DNA of 41,418 nucleotides from positions 21,379-62,796 of the forward strand of contig JBBTUK010000009.1 in NCBI GenBank assembly GCA_038063775.1. Direction: 5' to 3'. Both the position numbers and the translations under genes were made by a program. This document shows positions 6,432-19,919 of this stretch, piece after piece. Source of the stretch: Patescibacteria group bacterium. Its GTDB lineage: Bacteria > Patescibacteriota > Minisyncoccia > Moranbacterales > UBA2206. Every line of letters starts with the position of its first letter. The stretch's first letter is position 1. Under the pieces are notes generated by a model. That model had not been told where the DNA came from and did not search any database. It saw only the letters and a program-made list of their open reading frames with translations.

Positions 6432-8186
6432 ATGCTTAAAAAAGCAAACATAACGGTGATTCCCCTCTCTTCAAATGGGAGCGCTTTTAATCGTTTACAA
6501 TCGAACCGCAATTATTCCAAAAATAATCTGCGCATTATCCCTCTTGGGGGGCTGGAACAAGTCGGCCGCAATATGACCATCTTTGAATACGGTGCTGACA
6601 TCATCATTGTGGATATGGGACTCCAGTTCCCGGACGAAGACATGCCGGGCATTGATTACCTTATCCCGGACATCACCTATCTGCACGGCAAAGAAAAAAA
6701 TATCCGCGGCGTGCTCATCACCCACGGCCATTACGACCACATCGGAGCCATTCCCCATATTATGGAACGGATTGGCAATCCGCCGATTTATATGACTGAG
6801 CTGACGCGCGGAATCGTCATGAAAAGACAAGACGATTATAAAGACAAGTCGCCGCTCAACATCCATACGGTCAAAAAAATAGATCGTCTGCGGCTCGGCG
6901 CCTTTAACATTGAATTTTTCCATGTCAACCACACCATTCCGGACGCCGTCGGCATCGCCCTCACCACGCCGGTTGGCACCGTCATCCACACCGGTGACTT
7001 CAAGTTTGATCATTCACCGGTTTCCGACGATCCAGCCGATGTCGCCAAAATCGCCCGGCTCGGCAGCGAGAATGTTCTGGCTTTGATGTCGGATTCAACC
7101 GATTCCAAGACTCCCGGCTATTCCCTTTCCGAATCAAAAATCGCCAAGACTTTGGACGAGATATTCGAACGCACGGAAGGTCGACTCATCATCGCCACCT
7201 TCGCCGCGCTCATCAGCCGCATCCAATCGGTCGTGACAGCGGCGGAAAAACACGGACGCAAAGTCGCCGTTGACGGCTATTCTATGCGCACGAATGTCGA
7301 AATCGCCAAAAATCTCGGTTATCTCCAAGCCAGAAAAGGCACCTTGATCCCGATAAACAAGATTGGCGATTATCCGGAAAGCAAAATAGCGATTCTTTGC
7401 ACCGGAGCGCAGGGTGAAGCCAACGCGGTGCTGATGCGCATCATCAACGGTGAACACCGCTTTGTCAAAGTCAAAAAAGGCGACACTTTCATTTTGTCTT
7501 CCTCGGTCATTCCTGGAAACGAAAGAACGGTGCAGTCCATTATGGACACGCTCTACCGGAAAGATGCCAAGGTCATCCATTACAAAATGATGGATGTTCA
7601 CGCCGGCGGACACGCCCGTCAGGAAGATTTGAAAATGATGATCAATTTGATCCGCCCGAAATATCTCATTCCTATCCACGGAAATTATTATATGCTGAAA
7701 CTCCACGGGGAACTCGGCATCTCGGTTGGCTTGGATCCGAAAAACATCCTGATCGGCGAAAACGGACGAGTGATCGAATTTGATTACCGCGGCAACGGGA
7801 AAATCACCGAAGAAAAAGTGCCGACTAATCAAATTATGGTGGACGGCTTGGGGGTGGGCGACATCGGACAAGTGGTCTTGCGCGACCGGCAAGTCTTGGC
7901 CAAAGACGGTATGTTCACCATCATCGTCATCATTGACGGCAAGACCAAAAAGATTATCGGCAAACCTCAAGTCACTTCCCGCGGATTCATCTTTGTCAAG
8001 GAGAACTTTGATCTGGTGAACGCCACCAAGAAAAAAGTGGAAGAGATCATCGCCCAAAAAACTTCGAAAGGGGCAGCGGTCAATTGGGATTATGTGAAAA
8101 ACAACATCCGCGAAACGGTGGGCTCATTCCTCTACCAAAAGACCCAAAGGAGACCCATGATTCTTCCAGTCGTAATAGAAGTATAG
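6432..8186 (+). CDS. rnj: ribonuclease J
   Basis: 584 aa starting LRIIPLGGLEQVGRNMT, with the metallo-beta-lactamase motif ITHGHYDHIG, a beta-CASP region and an RNase J C-terminal domain. Confidence 0.93.
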   Translation: MLKKANITVIPLSSNGSAFNRLQSNRNYSKNNLRIIPLGGLEQVGRNMTIFEYGADIIIVDMGLQFPDEDMPGIDYLIPDITYLHGKEKNIRGVLITHGHYDHIGAIPHIMERIGNPPIYMTELTRGIVMKRQDDYKDKSPLNIHTVKKIDRLRLGAFNIEFFHVNHTIPDAVGIALTTPVGTVIHTGDFKFDHSPVSDDPADVAKIARLGSENVLALMSDSTDSKTPGYSLSESKIAKTLDEIFERTEGRLIIATFAALISRIQSVVTAAEKHGRKVAVDGYSMRTNVEIAKNLGYLQARKGTLIPINKIGDYPESKIAILCTGAQGEANAVLMRIINGEHRFVKVKKGDTFILSSSVIPGNERTVQSIMDTLYRKDAKVIHYKMMDVHAGGHARQEDLKMMINLIRPKYLIPIHGNYYMLKLHGELGISVGLDPKNILIGENGRVIEFDYRGNGKITEEKVPTNQIMVDGLGVGDIGQVVLRDRQVLAKDGMFTIIVIIDGKTKKIIGKPQVTSRGFIFVKENFDLVNATKKKVEEIIAQKTSKGAAVNWDYVKNNIRETVGSFLYQKTQRRPMILPVVIEV

Positions 8187-8258
8187 AAGACCGACTTGCC
8201 CCGTGGTCGCCCCTGGCGACTTTACGGGGTGATCCTGCCCGTTGTGATTGAAGTATAA
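8187..8258 (+). other. in-frame duplicate of the rnj C-terminal tail (KT...VILPVVIEV stop), interrupted by a palindrome
   Basis: Directly after the rnj TAG the frame continues as aag acc ... gtg atc ctg ccc gtt gtg att gaa gta taa. This repeats KT/(M/V)ILPVVIEV from 8139-8186, with wobble differences in most codons. Confidence 0.85.
8199..8229. repeat. 31-bp GC-rich palindrome inside the duplicated rnj tail
   Basis: The sequence ccccgtggtcgcc-cct-ggcgactttacgggg gives 12 paired positions. Its termini CCCCGT...ACGGGG resemble the ends of the larger elements. Confidence 0.75.
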
Positions 8259-8267
8259 AAAAGAATT

Positions 8268-8299
8268 AGAAAATCCCCCGCCAAGGCAGAGGATTTTCT
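8268..8299. terminator. hairpin between the convergent rnj and 8308-9120 genes
   Basis: A 9-bp stem agaaaatcc ... ggattttct, followed by T-rich sequence. Confidence 0.5.
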
Positions 8300-8307
8300 A
8301 TTTGGAT

Positions 8308-9120
8308 TTACTTGCCCAATATTACCACAACATCCGCACTTTGCTGTTCAGCGGTCAGCGCTTCCTTAACTTCGGCCTTTATTTTACCGGCAGCTAAAAT
8401 TTCCTTCAGTGCTTCGGCCGGCTTTTTGAATTGTTCGCCTTTATAATAAACAGTTGCACCGATTACATTTTCTCCTTGCCCGTTGCCCGCCTCAGTTTTG
8501 ACATACCCCTGTCCGGCTAACAAGGTCTTGATTCTGCCGGCGCTGCCCGCCGCCGCTCCCGCGTTCAAAACTTTCACGCCTAGAGCCGCCGGCGCGACTT
8601 CCGCTATTTGATTGTTTTCGATGGTATTTTTTTCTTCGGCAGAATTGTCCGAAGCAGCTTCCTGATTGACCGGAATAACGACCTCGTTTTCCTTTTCACC
8701 GGCCGGATTGGCCGCTGGTTTTTTTAGCCGCCAGAGATATCCGCCACCAATGAGCGCGCCTAGAACAATCAAACTCAAAACTGCGAAAAATATTTTTTTA
8801 CCGAGAGAGGTTTTTCCTTCCACATATTCCAGCTGGCTGTTCGCCGGTTTTTCTTCCTCCGTTTTTTTCCTGCCCAAGCTGGCAATAAAAGTCTCTTGCT
8901 TTTTTATTTTATCCTTGTATATTTCTTCCTTCTTCACCTTTTCAACTTTTATAGTTTTCCTTTCACCGGGAAGCACTATGTCTTCGATTATCCTCTCTCC
9001 TTGATAAAATTCCTTGCTTCCGATTTTTTCCATCGGAACCGGTTCCCAATTTTCTTCAGAGCCTTTTGTTTCTTCGCCCATATTCTCCTTTTTGATATCA
9101 ATATTATTTTTACTTGCCAT
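8308..9120 (-). CDS. membrane-anchored LytR_C (LytR/CpsA/Psr C-terminal) domain protein
   Basis: 270 aa with a K/E-rich N-terminus, one TM helix (IFFAVLSLIVLGALIGGGYLW) and a C-terminal VKVLNAGAAAGSAGRIKTLLAGQGY...ADVVVILGK. It is a paralog of the C-terminal half of the 11282-13465 product. Confidence 0.75.
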   Translation of the reverse strand: MASKNNIDIKKENMGEETKGSEENWEPVPMEKIGSKEFYQGERIIEDIVLPGERKTIKVEKVKKEEIYKDKIKKQETFIASLGRKKTEEEKPANSQLEYVEGKTSLGKKIFFAVLSLIVLGALIGGGYLWRLKKPAANPAGEKENEVVIPVNQEAASDNSAEEKNTIENNQIAEVAPAALGVKVLNAGAAAGSAGRIKTLLAGQGYVKTEAGNGQGENVIGATVYYKGEQFKKPAEALKEILAAGKIKAEVKEALTAEQQSADVVVILGK

Positions 9121-9188
9121 TTTTTTGTTTTAGCTTAATTGCATTCAGTATACAATTTACTGCGCAATTTGCCAAAGCATGTACAAAA

Positions 9189-9257
9189 ATGTTATTTTAT
9201 TTACATCAAAAAACTCAAAGAAGGCTCTTGATACTGCTCGTCGTAATAGAAGTTTAA
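9189..9257 (+). other. third relic copy of the rnj C-terminal tail (MLFYLHQKTQRRLLILLVVIEV stop)
   Basis: Compare rnj ...SFLYQKTQRRPMILPVVIEV stop. The match is 14 of the last 17 residues, with many synonymous DNA differences. It lies between two minus-strand genes. Confidence 0.7.
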
Positions 9258-9269
9258 AAAAATAAATTT

Positions 9270-9299
9270 AAAACCCGCCGCCGAAACGGGGTGGTTTTT
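9270..9299 (-). terminator. intrinsic terminator downstream of 9306-9608
   Basis: On the minus strand, aaaaaccaccccg-tttcggcgg-cgggtttt is followed by a T-rich run. Confidence 0.5.
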
Positions 9300-9305
9300 C
9301 ATCGG

Positions 9306-9608
9306 TCACTTTGACGCTTTAGTTATGACTTTGAGCATCACGTAACCTCCGGAGGCGAAGAAAAAGAGGGCGAAAACCCGGGAAGTATAGAAAATTTGAT
9401 TGGAAAAATCTAGTGAAATAATATTGAAATATTTATTTATTTGGACAAACGAGGCTACTAAGAGAACGAAGCCGCACAAGAAAAAAAATTTAAAAGCGGC
9501 ATCCAGCCCTTTTTCTGTGCGCAATACCAGCTTCACCATGACTACGTTGGCAAAAATGGCTATAGTCAAATTCAACAGATCAAAAAATAACTCAATTTTG
9601 CTCGGCAT
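9306..9608 (-). CDS. small hydrophobic membrane protein (about 3 TM), unknown function
   Basis: A 100-aa ORF co-directional with and closely spaced to the surface locus. I recognise no motif. Confidence 0.5.
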   Translation of the reverse strand: MPSKIELFFDLLNLTIAIFANVVMVKLVLRTEKGLDAAFKFFFLCGFVLLVASFVQINKYFNIISLDFSNQIFYTSRVFALFFFASGGYVMLKVITKASK

Positions 9609-9619
9609 ATATTTTTATT

Positions 9620-10849
9620 TTAATTGCTTATTAAAAATCCTTTTTCCCTCAAAACGTTTTCATCAATCGGCCGGTAAGACAAGAACCTCTTGTATTCCAA
9701 AATGACAATGAATATCATGGCGATGAAAAGCAGAAGTATGAAGGAGATATCAAAAATAACCGTCTTGGAGAATTTTTCCTCCGTTATTACGGTGCCGCCT
9801 ATTTGAATGACCGGCCGGTCAACCGTGTTGAATGTGACGGCTTGGACATATTTGTCCTGTCCGATTTGCGGGACTACTTTTAACAGATATTTTCCGGAAA
9901 TTACTCGGTTTTGCAGGTCAATCCTTTTGAGAAAAGAGCCTCCGTTGTCCAAAAGTATTTTATCTGAAAATTGGGAAATCAGTTTTTCCTCCTCTTTGCT
10001 CAAAGAACTGTTCCACTCATAGGCATACAGGCTGTAGTTTATTTTTGCTTCAGCCGGCGAGCCGCTCCCCAGGGGAGTAAAAATAAGCTGCATATCCAGC
10101 TTATCACCGGGATTGAATTCTTTTTTGTTCAGCAGAACTGCATTGAAAAGATAGGTATTTCCGGCCGTTTTTTCCATAAGTCGGTCCCCCAGATCGTTGT
10201 CGCCCGGTGATTCTTGATAGTATGATTCATTGAGGGATAGATTCGCCGGCCTGCCTATGTTTTTGTCCGCCTCCACGGTAAAATAATATTTCTGTGTGAA
10301 AACATCGCGTTTGCCTGAAATCTCAAAAGGTGAAAAATTATACGCCTCAATTGAATGCTCTCCGTTTTCCAGCGGTTGGCCGTAATTCGTCCAGGTCCAG
10401 TTTCCCCGACTGTCGCTAAAAGTTGATGAAAAAAATCCCTCGGAATGGATTTCCAAAAAAACTTCCGAATTCGGATAGAGAACGGTGCCGGAAAAAAATA
10501 TTATGGGACTTGTCAGACGATTGTTTCTTTTTTGCTTTTCAATTAACTTTTCTCTTTCCGCCTGCGCCGGATCCTGGATCGCGACAATGATTCTGTAATC
10601 TGAATTTTTTAGATCAGCCTCATCCGATTCCTCCTCTTCTTCTTCCGCCGGTTCGGTTTTTTCTATCGGATTAAAAGGCGTTATCTCCTGCCGGAATCTG
10701 ACTGTTTCCGCGGCATAAGCAAAACTAAGATGCTTGCCCAGAATGACATAAAACAAAACGAGGTGAATCAATATCATTGCCAAGAACCCGGATAAGATTA
10801 TGAGTTTTTTGACTGTTTTTTTTTGTTTGAGAAAATCTTTTTTGTCCAT
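9620..10849 (-). CDS. bitopic surface protein with N- and C-terminal TM helices and an Ig-like/beta-sandwich-like ectodomain
   Basis: 409 aa with an acidic linker EPAEEEEEESDE. Its start overlaps the upstream stop (TAATG at 10849), which suggests translational coupling. Confidence 0.6.
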   Translation of the reverse strand: MDKKDFLKQKKTVKKLIILSGFLAMILIHLVLFYVILGKHLSFAYAAETVRFRQEITPFNPIEKTEPAEEEEEESDEADLKNSDYRIIVAIQDPAQAEREKLIEKQKRNNRLTSPIIFFSGTVLYPNSEVFLEIHSEGFFSSTFSDSRGNWTWTNYGQPLENGEHSIEAYNFSPFEISGKRDVFTQKYYFTVEADKNIGRPANLSLNESYYQESPGDNDLGDRLMEKTAGNTYLFNAVLLNKKEFNPGDKLDMQLIFTPLGSGSPAEAKINYSLYAYEWNSSLSKEEEKLISQFSDKILLDNGGSFLKRIDLQNRVISGKYLLKVVPQIGQDKYVQAVTFNTVDRPVIQIGGTVITEEKFSKTVIFDISFILLLFIAMIFIVILEYKRFLSYRPIDENVLREKGFLISN

Positions 10850-11232
10850 TAGGTATAGGTTCTCACTTCTTCGAGAAGCCCGTTATTTTTTACGAAATCA
10901 ATAGTTAAACTTTTTTTGCTCGATATCTCGCCGGCGTTCAAACTGATAATTTTTTGGTAATCGCTGAAAATTTTGTCGCTGGCGCTGATTTCCGTTTTCA
11001 GCTTGGAATCAAAAAACTTTATCATATACTGGCCGTCAGTTTCCGTAATGTTGCTCCAAATATCTTTTATCTCCCTGCCCTGGTCCAGATAAACGAATCT
11101 CACAGGAAGGATGGCTTGGCTGAAATTAATATTTTGGGCTTGCGCTGCTTTAAACGTAAAGAGATTAATAATAAAAGCGGCCAGAACCGTCCCGCTTAAA
11201 ATAAGTTTTCTGCTTTTTAAGTTCACCCGCAT
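10849..11232 (-). CDS. small secreted protein, unknown function
   Basis: 127 aa with a signal-peptide-like N-terminus (LILSGTVLAAFIINLFTFKAAQAQ). Its stop overlaps the next gene's start. Confidence 0.55.
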   Translation of the reverse strand: MRVNLKSRKLILSGTVLAAFIINLFTFKAAQAQNINFSQAILPVRFVYLDQGREIKDIWSNITETDGQYMIKFFDSKLKTEISASDKIFSDYQKIISLNAGEISSKKSLTIDFVKNNGLLEEVRTYT

Positions 11233-11281
11233 TTTCAGCCTAAGGCTGATCCGCCTTGGGCGGATACCTTTTTAATTTTGA

Positions 11282-13465
11282 TTATTTTCCCAGCATTACC
11301 ACGACATCGGCGCTTTTTTGTTCCATGGTGGCCGCTTTCTTAACCAACGCGTCTATCTTTTGTCCGCTGATTACTTCTTTGATAGCTTCCGCCGTTTCTT
11401 TCAAGCTGTCATCCTTATAGTACACTGCCGCTCCCGAATGATCGCTGGCCAGAGCATTTTTGGCCTCTGCCTTAGAATATCCTCCGCTCACGAGAATATC
11501 TTTTATTTTTCCGGCCGCCCCTTCCGATGCTCCGCCATTTAGAACTATGAGGCTGATCTTCGCCTTTGTATCATTATTTCCAAGAGAGGCGTTCTGATCG
11601 GCAGTATTTTTCTCCTCTTCAGCGGCTTGATTTTTATTCGCATCCTCTGAATTATTGCCTATTGAAATGGGAGGAATTTTTTCCTGGATCACAATTTCTT
11701 CTTTTCCGTTTTTTCCCAAGAATGCCACGACTCCCCAGATCGCAATCGCCAAAAAAATTGCTCCCGGAATGATCCAGCCTAGTTTTTTCCAGAGAAAACT
11801 TTTCTCCTCAACTATTTCTTCTTTTTCCTCGGATACTTCCCTCCTGGCCAGCTTCGCGATAAATTCTTCCTTGCTCTTCTTTTTTTGGGCGGGCTCTTCG
11901 CCGGCCGGACCGGTTTTTTCGCCGTAAATTTCCTCTTTTTTCACCGGTTCGGCTTTGATTTTTTTGCCTTCATTTTCTATTTTTTCTTTTTCAATCACTT
12001 TTTGAACTGCTTCTTCAATCGGAGCCTCTTCGGCCGGTAAAATATCCTCTGGTTCTTTTTCTATTAATAAGTTCTCCACTTTTTTCTCCAGCATTGCTTC
12101 GTTAATCGGAGAAACGCCGTCCAGAGGCGGAATCAATATTGTCCGTCCCGTTTCTAAGGAATATGGGGCTTTTAACTTATTAACCTTCACTAAAACTTTC
12201 CAATTAACATTGTTCTGCAGGGCTAACCCCACAACGTCCTCGCCTTTTTGCACGGCATAAGGAACCCAGCCGATGCCGCCGTATTTCTTCTTATGATAAA
12301 GTCTCCAGGCCTCATATGCCGCAAAAGCCAACAAAAACAGAACGGATGCGATGGCCATCTCTCGCCAGGGAATGACCCATATTTTTATTTCGGGTCCGAC
12401 TACCGCCACTTCCTGACCGCCAGCATCTTCGTATTTCATTTCCGTCGCGAAAGAAAAACGGCCGAAACGGGGATTGTGCCAGGAATAGTTGGAAATGAAG
12501 CTGTCTTTTTTCAGCACCTGGAATTTCCGGCTTACATCCTCGCTTCTTTTTCCGAACAGCAAGTCTTTGACATGGATGATATTTTCCTGCTCAATGCTGA
12601 CATTGCCGTCATTTTTGACCGAAGATTGGACCAGATATTCCTGGGGCCTCTTCGGATCACCGAACCAGTCGGCAAAGCTGAACTCCTTGAAATTTTTGAT
12701 AACCTTAAAATCTCCCAGCGTCAGTTTTTTTATGATTTCTCCGGGCACCGTTTCATAGATTCGGACGCCCACCCGGGTCGTCAGTTTTATGGCTGAACCG
12801 GTTTCCGCCTTTTGCGTTTCCGGTTCCACTTTTTGGATTAGGACCCCTCCCGTGTGTTCGCCGACATCAACTTCCTTCGGAACCCTGATAACAAAAGGGA
12901 TGAACAGTTTTTCCTTGGACGCCATTTCTTTTTCCACTGATTCAACGCCGGCGCACCATTTTTCCAGCTCCTGAAATTGCGTTTCTTCGACTTTCGGCTT
13001 TATTTTTACTTTTTTATTTTGAACATCAAATTCGTCCTGAATCTCCTCCCGGCTCAAGCGGCAAACTTCCAATATTTTCTTGTCTTTCCTTTTAAAAAGT
13101 CCCTGGAAAAATTCCGGCAGCGGAGCGGGATAAAAGCTTACCCAGGAACCGACTTCCAGTTTTGGTTCGCTGAATTGCTTCAGGGCGAAACCGCCGCTGG
13201 AGCTCGGCGTCGTATCCGCCGCGTATATCAGAGCTTTCCAGGACTCCGAGAAAAGATTATTCACTTCCAGCAAGTCTTCCTTCGCTTCCCCTGGATTTAA
13301 TTTATAAATGAACCAGGAAGCGCTGTTTTCCACGTTCGGATCCGGATTGGCCGGTTTCCCGCCGAGCATTCCGTATTCAATGGCCCGGGCCTGGTCGGTT
13401 CCGGCCAGCGCGAATAAGGCTGATAGGCACAAAATCGTTAAAAAAACTTTTATTTTTATTTTCAT
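11282..13465 (-). CDS. DUF916/DUF3324-like cell-surface protein fused to LysM and LytR_C domains
   Basis: 727 aa, in order: a signal peptide; SWFIYKLNPGEAKEDLLEVNNL...YAADTTPSSSGGFALKQ (a DUF916-like pattern); TM1 at aa ~369-389 followed by HKKKY; a LysM-like segment YAVQKGEDVVGLALQNNVNWKVLVKVNKLKAPYSLETGRTILIP; an E/K-rich linker; TM2 at aa ~562-584; and LytR_C (ISLIVLNGGASEGAAGKIKDIL...ADVVVMLGK). Confidence 0.7.
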   Translation of the reverse strand: MKIKIKVFLTILCLSALFALAGTDQARAIEYGMLGGKPANPDPNVENSASWFIYKLNPGEAKEDLLEVNNLFSESWKALIYAADTTPSSSGGFALKQFSEPKLEVGSWVSFYPAPLPEFFQGLFKRKDKKILEVCRLSREEIQDEFDVQNKKVKIKPKVEETQFQELEKWCAGVESVEKEMASKEKLFIPFVIRVPKEVDVGEHTGGVLIQKVEPETQKAETGSAIKLTTRVGVRIYETVPGEIIKKLTLGDFKVIKNFKEFSFADWFGDPKRPQEYLVQSSVKNDGNVSIEQENIIHVKDLLFGKRSEDVSRKFQVLKKDSFISNYSWHNPRFGRFSFATEMKYEDAGGQEVAVVGPEIKIWVIPWREMAIASVLFLLAFAAYEAWRLYHKKKYGGIGWVPYAVQKGEDVVGLALQNNVNWKVLVKVNKLKAPYSLETGRTILIPPLDGVSPINEAMLEKKVENLLIEKEPEDILPAEEAPIEEAVQKVIEKEKIENEGKKIKAEPVKKEEIYGEKTGPAGEEPAQKKKSKEEFIAKLARREVSEEKEEIVEEKSFLWKKLGWIIPGAIFLAIAIWGVVAFLGKNGKEEIVIQEKIPPISIGNNSEDANKNQAAEEEKNTADQNASLGNNDTKAKISLIVLNGGASEGAAGKIKDILVSGGYSKAEAKNALASDHSGAAVYYKDDSLKETAEAIKEVISGQKIDALVKKAATMEQKSADVVVMLGK

Positions 13466-13492
13466 CTGTTTTATGTTTTTTTAATTTTCTAA

Positions 13493-13501
13493 ATTATACC
13501 A
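13493..13501 (-). promoter_or_regulatory. extended -10 element TGgTATAAT upstream of 11282-13465
   Basis: The minus strand reads ccggattgTGgTATAATttag, about 28 nt upstream of the ATG. Confidence 0.4.
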
Positions 13502-13520
13502 CAATCCGGCATAATAATAA

Positions 13521-13546
13521 AACTGATACGCTAATGCGTATCAGTT
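13521..13546 (-). terminator. intrinsic terminator after 13573-14223
   Basis: A perfect 11-bp stem aactgatacgc/gcgtatcagtt with loop taat, followed on the minus strand by ttttattatt. Confidence 0.65.
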
Positions 13547-13572
13547 ATTAAAATCAAAGTTTTTCAATTATT

Positions 13573-14223
13573 TTAGGTCGCTGTCAAAGTCATGTTTAAG
13601 GTGTAGCTTCCCGTGGTTTGGGCTCCCGGAATGGTTTGCGACAGGCTGGTGCCGGTCAGATCCCATTGTCCGGGCTTTGGAGCTCCGGCCGCGGCCGTCA
13701 TCAGATCAATGCTACTCACTGATCCTTCCACGAAAGCATCGCTTGTCCCCTTGGAAACATTGGTTGTAGCCGTTCCGCCGACGCCCGCGATGGTTCCCAC
13801 GCTCGGATCAATGGTCATTTGTCCGCCATAAGAATCCGTATCCACTCCATCCCCGGCGCTGGCCGTGGAATCGTTATAATCATAGTAATTTGTTCCATTG
13901 GACCAAGCGGCAGTCGCTCCGCTGGTAGCCGCGATATTGAGCGTCCAGGTATCGGTCGTCCCGCTGGGATTGGTAATGCGCATCCGTTCGCTGGAGGTGC
14001 CTAGCGTGGCCGCCGAGGCTTGATAAGTCATGGAAAAAGCCTTGGAGGGAAAAGCCACGCCAGGGCTAGTTACTGTATTTCCACTAGCGTCTACGATTTG
14101 CACATCCAGAGAGCCGGTTATGGATTGGGAAAATTCGGTCGTGTCGGAAGCTAGTGCCGCCAGAACTCCAGTCAGGACAGAAACCGCAAACACCAGCGAA
14201 ATAACAGTTATTAATTTACGCAT
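13573..14223 (-). CDS. secreted WxL-like module protein (paralog 1)
   Basis: 216 aa with a signal peptide, then GSLDVQIVDASGNTV..., TWTLNIAATSG, ...GQWDLTGTSLSQTIPGAQTTGSYTLNMTLTAT. The layout matches WxL-type surface domains: two W-x-L motifs and a C-terminal aG.Y...tlt segment. Confidence 0.65.
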   Translation of the reverse strand: MRKLITVISLVFAVSVLTGVLAALASDTTEFSQSITGSLDVQIVDASGNTVTSPGVAFPSKAFSMTYQASAATLGTSSERMRITNPSGTTDTWTLNIAATSGATAAWSNGTNYYDYNDSTASAGDGVDTDSYGGQMTIDPSVGTIAGVGGTATTNVSKGTSDAFVEGSVSSIDLMTAAAGAPKPGQWDLTGTSLSQTIPGAQTTGSYTLNMTLTAT

Positions 14224-14258
14224 GTTTGTTTTGTAATAATTAAATCGCCTGATTTTGC

Positions 14259-14930
14259 TTATGAAATAGACAGGACCATAGTTATGGAATAGCTGCCGGC
14301 CGCCTGGGAAGCAGGCAGTTTTTGGGTAATGTTGTCAGCCGCGCCGATGAAATCCCAGCGGCAGGTAGTGGCCGCGCCGGCCGCCGCCGACATGATGTCA
14401 ATGCTATTAGTCGTGCCTTCCACGAAAGAATCGCTAGTTCCCAAGGAAACATTGGTTGTAGCGCATCCGGAAACTCCGGTTATGGAACCCGTACTCGGAT
14501 TGACCGTCATCTGCCCGCCGTAAGAATCAGTGTCCGCTCCGTCCGTGTATCCCGAACCGTCATTGAAATCGTAATAAGCCGTCCCGGTTGTCCACGTGGC
14601 GGTTGTGGCGCTGGCGGCTAAATTAGCCGTCCAGATTGCTGTCGTTGTCGGATTGGAAGCCCGGACTCTTTCGGCCGAAGTGCCGAACTGCCCGGTGGCG
14701 TCCTGGGTGCTAAAACTGAAGGTTTTCGCTCCCAGGGAAATAGCCGGACTGGCTACTGTGGTGCCCGCCGCGTCCACGACATCAACGCTCAAAGAACCGG
14801 CGTTGATCGTCTGATTAAAAGTGGATGAGTTGCTGGCGAAGACTTGTATTCCGACCAAGAATACGAAGATCAGTGCCAGAACAAGCGATTTTTGGCCTAT
14901 TTTAGCCATTTTTCTGATTTTTGTTTTCAT
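14259..14930 (-). CDS. secreted WxL-like module protein (paralog 2)
   Basis: 223 aa: AGSLSVDVVDAAGTTV..., IWTANLAAS, ...CRWDFIGAADNITQKLPASQAAGSYSITMVLSIS. It aligns end to end with 13573-14223. Confidence 0.65.
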   Translation of the reverse strand: MKTKIRKMAKIGQKSLVLALIFVFLVGIQVFASNSSTFNQTINAGSLSVDVVDAAGTTVASPAISLGAKTFSFSTQDATGQFGTSAERVRASNPTTTAIWTANLAASATTATWTTGTAYYDFNDGSGYTDGADTDSYGGQMTVNPSTGSITGVSGCATTNVSLGTSDSFVEGTTNSIDIMSAAAGAATTCRWDFIGAADNITQKLPASQAAGSYSITMVLSIS

Positions 14931-15004
14931 ATTTTTGATGTAATTATTTAAAATTTGCTTTAAACAAAGCTTTTTTCGCTTTTAAGCCACTTCTTAGCTT
15001 TAGC

Positions 15005-15037
15005 AAAACAAAAAATGAATCCTCACCCCGAGAATTC
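15005..15037 (-). terminator. terminator-like hairpin inside the 5' leader of the WxL-like operon (candidate attenuator)
   Basis: The minus strand reads gaattctc-ggggt-gaggattc (8-bp stem) followed by attttttgtttt. It lies about 60 nt downstream of the predicted TSS and about 75 nt upstream of the 14930 ATG. Confidence 0.5.
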
Positions 15038-15102
15038 ACCCTAGATAGCCCCTTTATTGTCGTCTATGTCGTTTTATCCCCTTTTTAAGCTATTGTAATA
15101 CC

Positions 15103-15131
15103 ATTATACACGATATCAAGGATTGTGTCAA
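15103..15131 (-). promoter_or_regulatory. consensus sigma70 promoter TTGACA-N17-TATAAT
   Basis: The minus strand reads TTGACAcaatccttgatatcgtgTATAAT. The TTGA of the -35 box is the left flank repeat of the GIY-YIG element. Confidence 0.7.
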
Positions 15132-15417
15132 CCCCGCACTAACTTTCGTTCAAAGACTTTTTGATTCTTCTTCTTAATTGCGCCCAGGCTTGTCCAAATT
15201 GCTTTATTTGCTTTTCTCTTTCTTTTGCGTCCCACTCGGATAAATACGCTTCATAATACATGAGTTTCCAGATGTGTCCTTTTGTAGAAAAAGAATTTCC
15301 CTCATTGTGGTCAAAAAGTCTTTTCCGCAAGTTACTACTATATCCATAGTATAGCTCCTTGCGCTCATTTCTCAGGACATAAAAATAATGCATACAATAA
15401 CGAAAGTTAGTGCGGGG
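15132..15417 (-). mobile_element. 286-bp element with perfect 19-bp terminal inverted repeats carrying a GIY-YIG ORF, flanked by TCAA/TCAA
   Basis: The inverted repeat ccccgcactaactttcgtt (15132-15150) pairs with aacgaaagttagtgcgggg (15399-15417). The TCAA flanks are at 15128-15131 and 15418-15421. The ORF fills 255 of the 286 bp. Confidence 0.75.
15139..15393 (-). CDS. GIY-YIG nuclease family protein (single catalytic domain, COG2827/UPF0213-like)
   Basis: 84 aa: MHYFYVLRNERKELYYGYSSNLRKRLFDHNEG...YYEAYLSEWDAKEREKQIK, matching the GIY...YIG...R...H/N...E pattern. The stop and last four codons lie inside the inverted repeat. Confidence 0.85.
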   Translation of the reverse strand: MHYFYVLRNERKELYYGYSSNLRKRLFDHNEGNSFSTKGHIWKLMYYEAYLSEWDAKEREKQIKQFGQAWAQLRRRIKKSLNES

Positions 15418-17793
15418 TCAAGTGGCCGTTAGCGTCATACCAATGGAATAGCTGTCCGCTTGTTGCTGGGCCGGTATATCCTGGGTCAGCGCCACGCCCG
15501 TAAAGTCCCAGTAACAGCCAAAGGAGGTGGTGGACGTTAGAAGAGTTACACTGTTGCCCGCGTCAAAATAGGCAGCTGATCCTTTGGATGGTGAGACGGC
15601 GCCGCAACCCCCCTCCGGCGTTATTGTTCCCGCGCTGGGATCCACCCTTAGCCGGCCGTTAGCCGCCGTGTCATTGAAATCATAATTATAGGTTGCGCCT
15701 TGCCAAAGAGTCGAGGCGCCGCCGGTCGCTGCAATCGTAAGGTTCCAGTTTCCATTAGCTGTAGTATTGGTCAATCGAATTTTCTGGCTGGCCACGCCGA
15801 GCGTTCCAGCGGAGGTCTGTCCCACCCAGTCGAACGTTTCGGCGGAAAAAGAAACGGACGGACTGCCCACCGGTGTACCGCCCGAATCCACGATGTCCAC
15901 TGACAGCGTACCCGCAGAAAGCGTGATGGTCCCGGAAGAATAATCATTCACTTGGGAATTCACTCCGTCACTGACCAAGCCGTAGACATAATAGCTGCCC
16001 GCCGACATGCCGGCCGTATCCCAGGAACAAGTCGCTCCCGTGCCTTCGCCCGCCGAGGCGCAAGCACCCGTAATGGCCGTACCGTCCAGACCCGAACCAT
16101 TGGAATCCCAATAAAAGACCGCGTTAACGATGTTGTCAGAATCAGCCAAATCATAAGTGATGTTATACAGAGTGCCGATGGGCACGCTGTCACTCACCCC
16201 ATCCGGCTGGCTGACGGTGAGCGTCGGCCGGGCGTTGATGGTCACCACTCCCGGTGAATAGTCGCTGACTTCAGTGTTGACCGTGTCATTGACATCCCGG
16301 CCGTAAATATAATAAGTGCCGGGCGAGACGCCGGTCGTGTTCCAGGCGCAAGTGCCGCCCGAGGCTTCGCCCTGGTTCTGGCAGGCGGCAATGGAAGTGC
16401 CGTTGAGCCCCGTACCATCCGTGTCGTAATAGAAATCCACGGTAACCGTGCTGTCGGTGTCGGCCAGATTGTAAGTTATGTAATTATAAGTGCCGTCCTG
16501 GGCGATGGTATCACCGGTGCCGTCAGGCTGAGTGACAGTTAAAGTCGGCGCGTCGTTGATCCGGATCCGGCCGGTTGAAACATCAACGACATCCGGATTC
16601 ACTCCGTCATTGGCCACGCCATAAATATAGTAATACGTACTGAGACTCATGCCCTCGCCAAGAGGGCTGAAGGAACATGTTGCGTTGGTTCCCTCAATTT
16701 GGTTTTGACAGCTTGAGATGGCCGTGCCCCCGGCTCCGTTGCCGTCCGTTTCATAGTAAAAATCGGCGGTAGCGGTTCCCGCGTCGGCCAAGTCATATTG
16801 GATCTGGTAATTGCCTCCGTCCGCTACGTCCGTGTCCGAGGCTGGATTATCCACCGTGACGGTCGGCGGAGTATCTGCATAAGGTCTTAAAGCCAAGGTG
16901 ACCGCCGTCCACGAATCGCTTGTGGTGGTCGTGCCCCCACCGGCAAATGCCGCCGGATCATAGGCGCCGGAAGACCAGGTCGTATACCCGGCTCCGACCA
17001 TGCCGTCTTGGGTGTCATTCCCATTTGCCGCGCGGAAATCAGTGAGATATGACGCGGTGTAATTGCCGCCCGTTGAGCCGGATCCGGCGCCGGCTACATA
17101 AATCCACGCTCCGGAGGAAGTGGGCGTAATCGCCCCCGGATTTACAACCCGAGTATTTATCGCTCCGGCAGTGACTGCCGCGACATCAAGGGGCGTGCCT
17201 GCATCAACATTCCGGAACACATGAACAGACCAGGCGCGGCCGCCAGACGCGTCGCCGCCCGCGAGAATCACCGAGGTTTCCGGCGTCCCCGGCATAAACC
17301 GATACGCCACTCGGAGATTTGAGTCGTAAGAGTCGTTCTGATACAGCTCCGACCCGGCCAGTGTGTAGGCCGTTCCCCCACTATTATTGATCGTCAGCGC
17401 CTTGTTGGCTGTGTCCCCATTGGAAAACGCGACAATGACCAGATCGTCGGCCGCTGGCGTTGAAGCACTGCCGTTGGTGAGCGAAAAATTAACCGTCGTG
17501 TTGCCGCTAACACCGGCAGAGCTGCCCACCTGGCCTCCCACATAGGATACTGCCGCCAGAGCGGTGTGAATCCTTAACTTTTCCGGCAAATCCCGGATAG
17601 ACGCGTATTTATCCACGATGTCCGAACCGCTATCTTTTTGCGTAAGCCAAATTCTGTCCACGATTCCCCGGGTGCTGATGTAGGAATCTACCAGGGTCTT
17701 TACGAGATAAAAAGAGGCGTTGGAAAAAACCAGTCCTGTAATTACCAGAAATACTACCAGGAATCTGAATATTTTTCCGCTTCGTTTGCCCAT
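15418..17793 (-). CDS. large membrane-anchored surface protein: N-terminal TM, unknown ~280-aa domain, 3 tandem ~105-aa repeats, C-terminal WxL-like module
   Basis: 791 aa. The C-terminal 164 aa (GTLSVDIVDSGGTPV...NWNLTIAAT...CYWDFTGVALTQDIPAQQQADSYSIGMTLTAT) are paralogous to the two small proteins downstream. The TGA stop lies within the TCAA flank of the GIY-YIG element. Confidence 0.8.
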   Translation of the reverse strand: MGKRSGKIFRFLVVFLVITGLVFSNASFYLVKTLVDSYISTRGIVDRIWLTQKDSGSDIVDKYASIRDLPEKLRIHTALAAVSYVGGQVGSSAGVSGNTTVNFSLTNGSASTPAADDLVIVAFSNGDTANKALTINNSGGTAYTLAGSELYQNDSYDSNLRVAYRFMPGTPETSVILAGGDASGGRAWSVHVFRNVDAGTPLDVAAVTAGAINTRVVNPGAITPTSSGAWIYVAGAGSGSTGGNYTASYLTDFRAANGNDTQDGMVGAGYTTWSSGAYDPAAFAGGGTTTTSDSWTAVTLALRPYADTPPTVTVDNPASDTDVADGGNYQIQYDLADAGTATADFYYETDGNGAGGTAISSCQNQIEGTNATCSFSPLGEGMSLSTYYYIYGVANDGVNPDVVDVSTGRIRINDAPTLTVTQPDGTGDTIAQDGTYNYITYNLADTDSTVTVDFYYDTDGTGLNGTSIAACQNQGEASGGTCAWNTTGVSPGTYYIYGRDVNDTVNTEVSDYSPGVVTINARPTLTVSQPDGVSDSVPIGTLYNITYDLADSDNIVNAVFYWDSNGSGLDGTAITGACASAGEGTGATCSWDTAGMSAGSYYVYGLVSDGVNSQVNDYSSGTITLSAGTLSVDIVDSGGTPVGSPSVSFSAETFDWVGQTSAGTLGVASQKIRLTNTTANGNWNLTIAATGGASTLWQGATYNYDFNDTAANGRLRVDPSAGTITPEGGCGAVSPSKGSAAYFDAGNSVTLLTSTTSFGCYWDFTGVALTQDIPAQQQADSYSIGMTLTAT
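15913..16869 (-). repeat. three in-frame tandem ~315-bp coding repeats (aa ~309-627)
   Basis: The repeat units are PTLTV(T/S)QPDG...Y(N/D)LAD.D....V.FY(Y/W)D..G.G..GT.I..C......G..C.W.T.G...G.YY.YG...D.VN, each with two conserved Cys. Confidence 0.8.
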
Positions 17794-17798
17794 GATGC

Positions 17799-18767
17799 TT
17801 AATTTTCGCTGTAGCCGCTTACATAATTGAAGACTTGTTCGGATATTTTTTTCATCAGGTCTTCCGCCTCTCGTTTGTCCCTCCCGCTTACCATTACGGT
17901 CAAGATGTACGGCCGGTTCGGAGCGTAAATGATGCCCGAATCCATATACACATTTTTGTCCTCGGCGACGCCGATTTTGTGGGCATAGACCGTGCCCTCC
18001 GGCAATCCGCCTTTGAGATATTCGTCAAATCGGGTTTCCGAAAGATAAGCCAGGAGCTTTTGGGAACTCTCCTCTGACAGATATGAAGAATTATAAAGCG
18101 CCCGGAAATTAGCCGAGTATTTTTTCGCCCCGATTTCTCCTCCCGCTGAGAAAAAATCACCGGCTCCGAGATGTTCGTAAACATCGTAGATTTCCCTGGT
18201 TTCCAGATTTCTCACCAGGATAAAGTTGGCCGTGTTGTCGGAATCCACCAAAGCGCGGCGGACCAGATCTTCGATGGTAAAGATCGAGCCAGTCGGCTCC
18301 TTGAAGAGAGTTCCGAAGCTTTCTTCCTTGTCGGCCGCCATCAGAACCAGTTTATTGTCCCATTTCCATTCGCCCTTTTCAATCTTTTTGGCCACCGCCA
18401 TGGCCACCGGCAATTTGAGGAGGCTCGCCGGCCAGAATTGCGCGTCCTTGTTGATGGAGATATTGGCGCCGGTCGGCAAATATTCGAAATAGATAGATAT
18501 ATCTTTTTGGCCTTCGTATTTATTCAGCTCGTCCCGAAGCGGCTGGATGTTTATGATCAGGTCTTTCTGGTTTACTGATTTTCTAGCCGGATTCAGAAGT
18601 TGAAATTTGTCTTCCGTTTCTTCTGTTTGCTTTTTAGAGCCGTCCTTGATCTGGGTAAAATAGAATATTGTGAACAGATTCAAAACAACCAAAACCGCTA
18701 GAGCGGCAATAAAAAACTTTTGGTTATCAAGCTTTTCCGCGATTTTTTTGTTATTTTTTTCTTGCAT
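17799..18767 (-). CDS. class A beta-lactamase-like serine hydrolase, membrane-anchored
   Basis: It carries SxxK (PASLLKLP), SDN (DSDNTANF) and KxG (HKIGV) motifs. I trimmed the start to ATG 18767 (MQEKNNKK) because the ORF-track start at 18854 lies inside the repeat 18832-18907. Confidence 0.7.
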   Translation of the reverse strand: MQEKNNKKIAEKLDNQKFFIAALAVLVVLNLFTIFYFTQIKDGSKKQTEETEDKFQLLNPARKSVNQKDLIINIQPLRDELNKYEGQKDISIYFEYLPTGANISINKDAQFWPASLLKLPVAMAVAKKIEKGEWKWDNKLVLMAADKEESFGTLFKEPTGSIFTIEDLVRRALVDSDNTANFILVRNLETREIYDVYEHLGAGDFFSAGGEIGAKKYSANFRALYNSSYLSEESSQKLLAYLSETRFDEYLKGGLPEGTVYAHKIGVAEDKNVYMDSGIIYAPNRPYILTVMVSGRDKREAEDLMKKISEQVFNYVSGYSEN

Positions 18768-18831
18768 AGTGATGCTTATATTATACAATAATTTGCCAGA
18801 ATAAGCATTTTGATGATAGTTTATATATATG

Positions 18832-18907
18832 CCCGGTAGTGAAATTTTGACCAATTTCCTCCGGGAGGAAATTTTTATATTATTTAAGTCAAAATTCTAC
18901 TACTGGG
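18832..18907 (+). repeat. palindromic MITE-like element, subfamily A (76 bp), flanked by TATG/TATG
   Basis: Arms are cccggtagtgaaattttgac ... gtcaaaattctactactggg, with an internal hairpin aatttcct-ccgg-aggaaatt. The TATG flanks are at 18828-18831 and 18908-18911, and the second contains the trpS ATG. Confidence 0.85.
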
Positions 18908-18908
18908 T

Positions 18909-19919
18909 ATGAAAAGGATTTTTTCCGGCATTCAGCCGTCAGGCAACTTGCACCTGGGCAATTACCTTGGGGCCATCAAAAACTGGGTCAAGCTTCAAAA
19001 CGAGTATGACTCTATTTTTTGCGTGGTGGATCTCCACGCCATTACTGTTCCGCAAGATCCGGAGGAACTCAAGAAAAAAATCATCGAAGTGGCCAAAATA
19101 TATTTGGCCGCCGGCATAGACCCCAAAAAATCGGCGATTTTCATCCAATCGCATGTCCCCGAACACGCGGAGTTGGCGTGGATTTTGAATACTTTGGCCA
19201 AGATTTCCGAAATGGAACGAATGACCCAATTCAAGGATAAATCGGCCAAGAATAAAGAGGGCGTTGGTATGGGACTGTTCGATTACCCAGTGCTGATGGC
19301 CGCCGATATTCTTCTTTACGATACGCAAGTCGTCCCGGTCGGCGAAGACCAGCTGCAACACATTGAAATAACCAGGACATTGGCCAAAAGATTTAATACT
19401 CGTTTCGGCGAAACATTTGTGATTCCCAAAGCTTATTATATGGAAAATGAAGGAATGCTTGCCCGCCAAAGCCTTGGCGTCGGCGGGAGGATTATGGGAC
19501 TGGATGATCCAGCTAAAAAAATGAGCAAGTCGGCCGAGTCGGAATACAATTACATCGCCCTTACGGATTCCGAAGAAGCGGTGCGCAGAAAAATCAAAAA
19601 GGCCGTGACTGACTCCGGAACCGAAATAAAATATGCTGATGATAAACCGGCACTTAAGAATTTGATAAATATCTATTCTCTCTTGTCCGACAAAAAACCG
19701 CAGGAAATTGAAAAATTATATAAAGACAAAGGATACTCTGAATTTAAAACTGACTTAGCTGAAGTAATTATAAATTTCCTGAAACCTTTTCAGGAAAAAT
19801 ATAACGCTCTCTCGGACGAAGAAGTTCTAAAAATCCTCCGGGAAGGCGCGGAAAAAGTTCGTCCGCTGGCTAATAAAAAACTGGAAGAAGTAAAAAATAA
19901 AGTTGGATTTATTTTGTAA
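18909..19919 (+). CDS. trpS: tryptophan--tRNA ligase
   Basis: 336 aa: IFSGIQPSGNLHLGNYLGA (HIGH region) and KMSKS (KKMSKSAES). Confidence 0.93.
   Translation: MKRIFSGIQPSGNLHLGNYLGAIKNWVKLQNEYDSIFCVVDLHAITVPQDPEELKKKIIEVAKIYLAAGIDPKKSAIFIQSHVPEHAELAWILNTLAKISEMERMTQFKDKSAKNKEGVGMGLFDYPVLMAADILLYDTQVVPVGEDQLQHIEITRTLAKRFNTRFGETFVIPKAYYMENEGMLARQSLGVGGRIMGLDDPAKKMSKSAESEYNYIALTDSEEAVRRKIKKAVTDSGTEIKYADDKPALKNLINIYSLLSDKKPQEIEKLYKDKGYSEFKTDLAEVIINFLKPFQEKYNALSDEEVLKILREGAEKVRPLANKKLEEVKNKVGFIL

Follow-up and report, generated by a model that had tools for sequence, protein, structure and literature searches.

The stretch of DNA analysed here, referred to as the window (41,418 nucleotides from a Patescibacteria group bacterium of the Moranbacterales), carries a complete gene for RNase J, rnj, the end of which recurs further downstream in displaced copies, and this raises the question of how an essential gene came to be followed by relics of its own 3' end. 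The original prediction took these relics for the repeats that integrative elements leave when they insert serially at the end of a gene. The window was compared with fetched loci, denoted by L-numbers, for which RNase J orthologues were taken as 80 + 80 sequences (the best 80 loci of each collection). The closest RNase J matches to the window came from Moranbacteria MAGs, with an amino acid identity of no more than 88-91%. The features of the window on which the argument depends are the following:

6432-8186, plus strand: rnj, complete, encoding an RNase J of 584 amino acids (Pfam RNase_J_b_CASP, RNase_J_C, Lactamase_B and RMMBL).
8136-8186, plus strand: tail 1, the final 16 rnj codons and the stop codon TAG, the sequence that recurs downstream.
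8187-8231, plus strand: the spacer AAGACCGACTTG, a GC-rich hairpin (core 8199-8229, CCCCG...CGGGG) and TG.
8232-8258, plus strand: tail 2, ILPVVIEV followed by TAA, a second copy of the final eight rnj codons.
8267-8300, no strand assigned (reported as minus by the scan): a terminator hairpin between tail 2 and the LytR_C stop codon.
8308-9120, minus strand: the gene for a LytR_C-domain membrane protein of 270 amino acids (Pfam PF13399).
9207-9257, plus strand: tail 3, a truncated copy of rnj codons 569-584 followed by TAA, at the left edge of a 9.7-kb block.
9258-9305, plus strand: a terminator-like region behind tail 3 (hairpin 9274-9295), homologous to the real rnj terminator of relatives.
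9306-18854, minus strand: the block itself, made up of a surface-protein operon and a beta-lactamase-like gene; in L104, L003, L179 and L180, no such block separates LytR_C from trpS.
18909-19919, plus strand: trpS, the right-hand anchor of the variable zone (Pfam tRNA-synt_1b; synteny with L104, L179, L180 and L173).

Tail 3 lies 1 kb downstream of the real rnj and comprises 51 nt, encoding QKTQRRLLILLVVIEV and a stop codon, against QKTQRRPMILPVVIEV and a stop codon in tail 1. The two are identical at 39 of 51 nucleotides with no indel needed, their longest identical run being 14 nt (GTCGTAATAGAAGT), and they differ at the protein level by P574L, M575L and P578L. A repeat finder independently paired 8136-8188 with 9207-9259 (53 nt, 77% identity), and a six-frame search of the 41-kb window with the rnj tail gave a score of 64 at tail 3, against at most 37 in unrelated sequence. 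A tblastn search with the whole RNase J against all DNA downstream of rnj in the window returned, as the only further rnj fragment, the tail 3 site (E=0.003), the rest being noise. Together these results rule out chance similarity. The third tail had been placed at 9189-9257; the relic is real, and its homology to rnj begins at 9207. The 18 nt ahead of it (9189-9206), whose translation MLFYLH had been counted as rnj-derived, belong instead to the LytR_C upstream region, which is common to L104. Other, independently assembled sequences from this groundwater population show the three-tail structure as well, among them a contig of a 99.6%-identical strain, and the occurrence of that structure in four independent contigs rules out an assembly artefact.

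The 12 nucleotide differences between tail 3 and tail 1 are distributed 1/2/9 over first, second and third codon positions, which bears out the many synonymous differences seen earlier. This predominance of third positions indicates that tail 3 derives from a diverged coding allele of rnj and not from a recent duplicate of tail 1; duplication of tail 1 followed by neutral drift is ruled out by the same distribution. The three amino acid changes suggest that tail 3 has begun to decay since. Nucleotide similarity to 135 rnj tails was uninformative as to the donor, the best of them matching at 42 of 51 positions and the window's own tail at 39.

The interval between tail 2 and tail 3 holds a terminator hairpin and the minus-strand LytR_C gene, as first described, with a promoter-like site on the minus strand at 9147-9175 (promoter scan). 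The LytR_C protein is kin to the C-terminal part of a 727-aa protein encoded in the block (~40% identity), as had also been noticed. The proposal that this gene is an insert bracketed by att-like repeats did not survive comparison with relatives. In L003, L104, L175, L177 and L179, rnj faces LytR_C in the same convergent arrangement and no third tail is present: four of these loci have no extra tail at all, and L104 has tail 2 alone. The LytR_C orthologues of the window and L104 align over their full length (49% identity), and 4-fold degenerate rnj sites between the window and the L104 lineage are saturated (0.37). Since the rnj-LytR_C pair is kept in five relatives that lack the third tail, LytR_C belongs to the conserved convergent surroundings of rnj and is no insert.

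The DNA that is extra in the window runs from 9207 to ~18.9 kb and consists of tail 3, its terminator, seven operon genes and the beta-lactamase-like gene. The block genes encode, in order, a membrane protein of 100 aa, proteins of 409, 127, 727 (LysM + LytR_C), 216, 223 and 791 aa, and the beta-lactamase-like protein. LytR_C divergently adjoins trpS in L104, L003, L179 and L180. In L173, rnj and trpS flank the whole block, beta-lactamase-like gene included, with three genes intervening on the rnj side. The operon is fast-evolving, and it is kept in L166-L170 but at other places. Downstream of trpS, the window continues with pgm and ychF, as in relatives, and then with rpsF, ssb, efp and recA. 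Given that LytR_C is no insert and that the block is rnj-proximal in L173, the window can be read as the common rnj-LytR_C-trpS order with the block spliced in. The rnj stub sits exactly at the left splice of the 9.7-kb block, where tail 3 abuts the LytR_C upstream region shared with L104. On the other side, trpS gave no signal for an imported block, the window trpS being not specially close to that of L173.

Several further observations concern the block itself. The adjacent genes for the 216- and 223-aa proteins (13573-14930, minus strand) are paralogues sharing a 202-nt direct repeat (72% identity), without a Pfam match, and form part of the surface-protein operon that L166 and L173 have kept. 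A GIY-YIG ORF of 82 aa lies inside the block at 15131-15418, with perfect 20-bp inverted repeats (ACCCCGCACTAACTTTCGTT) at its ends and a possible target duplication of 4 bp (TCAA). L014 (7736-7797, just behind the rnj terminator) and L092 (983-1112) contain short copies that have these ends but no ORF, which makes this unit look like a small mobile element family. In L171 (193-6639), a homologue of the 409-aa gene is found at the opposite side of this neighbourhood (NTP-transferase, holin-like, secG, SBP, pgi), a position suggesting that surface-protein genes have moved around the region in different lineages.

Both displaced tails are followed by terminators of recognisable origin. When aligned with the post-stop region of L179, the 60 nt behind tail 3 scored 19 (background mean -10.9, maximum 6, over 159 post-stop regions) and the 60 nt behind tail 2 scored 16 (background mean -10, maximum 5). 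The hairpin at 9274-9295 is a weak terminator-like site in the scan. Both post-tail terminators are homologous to the terminator behind the rnj stop codon in L179, L175, L177 and L104, and in the first three of these rnj is directly followed by a terminator homologous to that behind tail 3, a positive answer to the synteny question posed for relatives. This homology indicates that tail 2 and tail 3, each with its terminator, once served as genuine rnj ends and belong to one allele family. Of the two, tail 2 with its terminator occupies the orthologous position, since LytR_C comes next.

Two arrangements behind an intact rnj are found in related Moranbacteria. In the first (L003, L104, L175, L177 and L179), rnj is followed by a terminator, the convergent LytR_C and trpS; in the second (L173), it is followed by the surface-protein operon, the beta-lactamase-like gene and trpS. 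The window would represent these two arrangements end to end, with the join inside the rnj gene end of one parent, so that 51 nt (codons 569-584 and the stop codon) and a terminator stayed behind, flanked by the LytR_C promoter and the operon. Each of the two joined blocks is thus known beside an intact rnj, and the piece left between them is a truncated rnj 3' end in the same orientation, diverged as a coding allele. On balance, tail 3 is probably a decaying, non-functional recombination scar that joins two gene neighbourhoods and arose by homology-anchored illegitimate recombination. DNA imported from a relative would have entered by homology-facilitated illegitimate recombination, with one crossover based on sequence common to both genomes (rnj, or trpS and the DNA beyond it) and the other end joined illegitimately at the A-rich run CAAAAAAC in codons 569-571. 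Because adjacency of LytR_C and trpS is the common state, the simpler reading is that the block was probably imported together with the donor's rnj stub; in the reverse direction, an imported rnj-LytR_C segment would have displaced the resident tail. Neither direction would need an element-encoded integrase.

Independent support for crossovers within the anchor gene comes from two of the relatives, in which rnj is chimeric:

L177 1236-3182, minus strand: chimeric rnj.
L175 6834-7943, minus strand: chimeric rnj.

The RNase J of these loci combines an rnj2-type body, 70-90% identical to the second paralogue (rnj2) of L041, L105 and L118, with an rnj1-type end of ~110 residues that is 91% (L177) and 85% (L175) identical to the window and is followed by the same terminator family and LytR_C. 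That no integrase was found in or around the bracketed DNA, together with a chimera in the rnj 3' region, favours homology-anchored recombination with one illegitimate end. The gene content behind rnj differs among the window, L086, L104, L013, L173 and L175, so the repeated exchange that had been proposed for this gene end finds support, while the integrase-driven mechanism proposed with it does not.

Displaced 3' ends produced by illegitimate recombination are reportedly described by Jackson et al. 2009. Homology-facilitated illegitimate recombination is the origin given for the displaced 3' ends ('orphan' C-terminal fragments) of rhs, CDI and T6SS effector loci (PMC5361080). Those loci resemble the rnj locus in having a conserved body followed by truncated 3'-end copies, each with its downstream DNA, and in the process itself, in which homology in the conserved part anchors the incoming DNA and its downstream end is joined illegitimately; the copies are diverged alleles and not recent duplicates (PMC5361080). 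They differ in that their displaced ends encode different toxins and so diversify function (PMC5361080), whereas the rnj copies repeat the same invariant 8-16 residues of a housekeeping RNase, in relics of 27-51 nt, and the cargo consists of ordinary envelope genes.

Relics of the same kind were found in a distant lineage, L061 (7560-10080), the RNase J of which is 59% identical to that of the window. The first of its two further relics (relic 2) comprises 16 codons and a stop codon, shows wobble-position divergence with six synonymous differences, and encodes the lineage's own ILPLVVEV, a variant present in one of ~160 RNase J sequences. The second (relic 3) is nearly identical to the lineage's own tail, truncated at both ends and devoid of a stop codon. 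These relics bracket a 445-aa gene and, separately, a small secreted protein with a RelE/ParE-RHH pair, ahead of ruvC. The stop codon of the 445-aa gene overlaps the relic frame by +1 beside an A-run.

The junction in the window also lies at an A-run (CAAAAAAC), as does the start of relic 2 in L061. No microhomology was clearly definable at the tail 3 junction, and no parental genome close enough was found. Two observations count against a scar. All four relics (tail 2, tail 3 and the two in L061) begin within the final 17 of 584 codons, a clustering that is unlike random illegitimate junctions and hints at a site preference, and the change of Pro574 to Leu is common to the three longer relics.

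Such a preference would be expected if a tyrosine or serine integrase, possibly acting in trans, targeted the last ~50 nt of rnj, the tails then being attL/attR sites from tandem accretion. This origin is unlikely, and equally so the accompanying scheme in which each insertion supplies a replacement tail and pushes the earlier tail downstream. Two distant lineages (the window clade and L061) do have tail copies at this one gene end, with all relic boundaries inside the final 17 rnj codons, and their synonymous differences are those expected if an element's copy serves as the coding tail once integrated. The DNA bracketed in L061 includes a toxin-antitoxin pair (RelE/ParE-RHH), typical island cargo, and of all ORFs in the fetched loci with 150 aa or more, rnj alone has its end duplicated within 200 nt downstream. 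However, no recombinase was found with the repeats: in 8308-9120, Pfam identified LytR_C alone; of the nine block ORFs scanned, eight are free of recombinase domains and the ninth is the GIY-YIG ORF; and the inserts of L061 are likewise without a recombinase. Integrase families were absent among the 25 Pfam families listed, out of 130, for 114 representative ORFs downstream of rnj, and two degenerate rnj-tail patterns had 0 matches in the viral database IMG/VR.

The repeats themselves also seem to depart from what an integrase would leave. LytR_C stands beside rnj in five relatives without flanking repeats; the left boundaries differ (codon 569 in tail 3, codon 576 in tail 2, codons 568/569 and 572 in L061); no identical core longer than 14 nt is shared among the repeats; and L061 relic 3 is truncated on both sides and has no stop codon. 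The comparison with attL/attR repeats therefore holds in that the relic is a diverged rnj end and has a counterpart in L061, and appears to fail at the integrase, the common boundary and a clear core. As a whole, the sequence evidence appears to be better accounted for by recombination among genomes having rnj in common than by integrase-mediated attL/attR formation. A dif/Xer-type site was also considered, and on inspection no resemblance to the dif consensus was apparent. In L088 (1388-2267), the last eight residues of a gene (EVIRNACF) and its stop codon are repeated on the opposite strand less than 200 nt downstream, probably as the ends of convergent paralogous genes.

Tandem accretion of integrase-less, cis-mobilisable elements is exemplified by ICESt1/ICESt3 at fda in Streptococcus thermophilus. 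SGI1 at trmE is an integrative element that targets and restores a gene 3' end (PMC2297512), and the dusA islands are a 5'-end analogue (PMC4482086). The rnj locus shares with the 3'-end elements the order of gene end, foreign DNA and short direct repeat, and the serial repeats that leave the gene intact. It differs from them in that no integrase, core with fixed boundaries or matching phage or provirus was found, and in that the bracketed LytR_C is a conserved syntenic neighbour.

Tail 3 could instead be what is left of a complete second rnj, formerly located on the plus strand with LytR_C on one side and the 100-aa gene on the other, of which a later deletion spared the final 51 nt and the terminator, an origin we consider improbable. 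Moranbacteria often have two RNase J paralogues, complete rnj1-rnj2 pairs stand in tandem in L041, L105 and L118, the chimera of L175/L177 joins the two types, and tail 3 has its own terminator and is convergent to the next gene, like a real gene end. The upstream pseudogene sequence that a decayed copy might have retained was not detected in the window: tblastn with rnj1 and three rnj2 proteins found nothing except 9198-9254, and upstream of 9207 lies an intact orthologous LytR_C with its promoter and no rnj-like sequence. No relative compared has an rnj gene beyond LytR_C, the tandem rnj2 of L041, L105 and L118 being directly behind rnj1. The flank that follows tail 3 belongs to the rnj1-type terminator family, which rnj2 flanks do not resemble by eye (they were not scored), and rnj2 tails are no closer to tail 3, with 32-37 of 51 nt identical against 39-42 of 51 for rnj1 tails. 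The tandem RNase J copies are ~50% identical to each other (L041 6001-9592, L105 5001-8597, L118 5001-8496).

The remaining explanations grant the extra tails a function, and they draw mainly on tail 2, which is part of a module of fixed order: the end of tail 1 with TAG, a spacer ACCRACYTG, a GC hairpin, TG, and ILPVVIEV-type codons with TAA. The module was found in six scattered lineages of a clade with at least 80% RNase J identity:

Window 8187-8258: module site.
L013 7702-7772: module site.
L019 7759-7832: module site.
L104 6837-6901: module site.
L011 7702-7775: module site.
L086 6807-6909: module site.

Relative to gene ends of the L179 type, the spacer and hairpin with the end of tail 1 form an insertion of 65-74 nt. 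The hairpin has a predicted fold of -25.4 kcal/mol (z = -2.7), with a conserved CCCCG/CGGGG base and an interior that is variable yet still paired. Rfam gave no credible family for the hairpin or the relic region. Identity of the module between carriers is 0.51-0.84, against 0.31-0.56 at 4-fold degenerate rnj sites, which are saturated among carriers (0.31-0.43; window-L086 0.56). By codon position, identity among carriers is 0.72/1.00/0.41 in tail 2 and 0.80/1.00/0.35 in the real tail. The differences between tail 1 and tail 2 of one genome are almost all synonymous, and the two share the I/V variants of the lineage. The stop codon before the hairpin is TAG in five of six carriers, against 7 of 36 non-carriers (p = 0.005), and that of tail 2 is TAA in all carriers. 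A Val codon followed by the stop codon, together with GTG ahead of tail 2, occurs in 5/6 carriers, and the hairpin begins 12 nt past the stop codon. The ILPVVIEV-type reading of tail 2 is intact in four of the six, broken by a 2-nt insertion in L011 and decayed in L086. Its frame relative to rnj varies (offsets of 72, 71, 74, 65 and 71 nt), and stop codons are present in the L013 spacer. Contigs of the Logan assembly of SRR32696710 (L082, L085) end at 8245 and 8259, either side of tail 2, and the 13 nt left uncovered may reflect strain heterogeneity or simply low coverage at the GC hairpin.

Simpler origins of the module were rejected. It is not a leftover rnj1-rnj2 intergenic region, as the tandem loci have no such spacer or hairpin, nor a dispersed repeat or MITE, the spacer motif having been seen behind rnj only and gene-end duplication within 200 nt being unique to this gene. 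Carriers do not cluster in segment-wise rnj identities, which argues against horizontal spread of the module with the rnj 3' region. An overlapping ORF on the reverse strand does not account for the conservation of tail 2, because stop codons interrupt that frame, and readthrough or a simple frameshift is incompatible with the stop codons in the L013 spacer and the varying frame offsets. The module may reflect repeated recent acquisition, a selected homology arm or recognition site, or decoding by ribosome hopping or re-initiation.

It is conceivable, if doubtful, that the rnj end in Moranbacteria is a dedicated exchange point, with a mini-cassette of 65-74 nt (replacement tail end, TAG, spacer and hairpin) that is flanked by copies of the rnj tail under selection and for that reason spreads or persists. 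The tails would then be matched to the invariant rnj codon positions, as homology arms or recombination sites for the exchange of downstream genes or through decoding of the second tail, and this one system, not accident, would have produced tail 3 and the relics of L061. That the extra tails in general are functional and under selection, whether decoded or used as homology arms or recombination sites beside rnj, is very unlikely. The invariant second codon positions of tail 2 beside third positions at 0.41, despite saturated 4-fold rnj sites, favour such selection, as do the I/V variants shared with tail 1, the rare ILPLVVEV encoded by L061 relic 2 with six synonymous differences, the conservation of spacer and hairpin above neutral sites and the enrichment of TAG before the hairpin in carriers. 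Against it, tail 3 occurs in a single population and differs by three non-conservative changes; tail 2 has a disruption in L011, is decayed in L086 and does not keep its frame relative to rnj, with stop codons in the L013 spacer; and the hairpin start at 12 nt past the stop codon is unlike that of T4 gene 60.

If the module were decoded, ribosome hopping or re-initiation past the hairpin would yield either a longer RNase J or a peptide of nine residues that mimics the final strand of RNase J. Programmed translational bypassing occurs in T4 gene 60 and in the mitochondrial 'byp' elements. The module (and it alone) resembles these cases in having a sense codon followed by a stop codon and a gap of ~45 nt with a stable hairpin, and possibly a matching Val codon just ahead of the conserved frame. 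It differs from them in that the hairpin lies away from the take-off site, a bypass would add no more than a second copy of the final eight residues, and two of six carriers (L011 and L086) have a disrupted downstream frame.

Tail 2, an unannotated copy of eight codons with coding-like evolution across saturated divergence, would, if explained, point either to recoding in an essential RNase or to a homology-guided mini-element of a new kind. Read as a scar, tail 3 would record the reshuffling of gene neighbourhoods in the tiny, recombinase-poor genomes of Patescibacteria. Such genomes appear to anchor exchange in a highly conserved essential gene, and the chimera of L175 and L177 would be the same process taking place inside that gene. 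Scars of this kind would be useful in reading synteny breaks and "hypothetical small ORFs" in the genomes of Patescibacteria.
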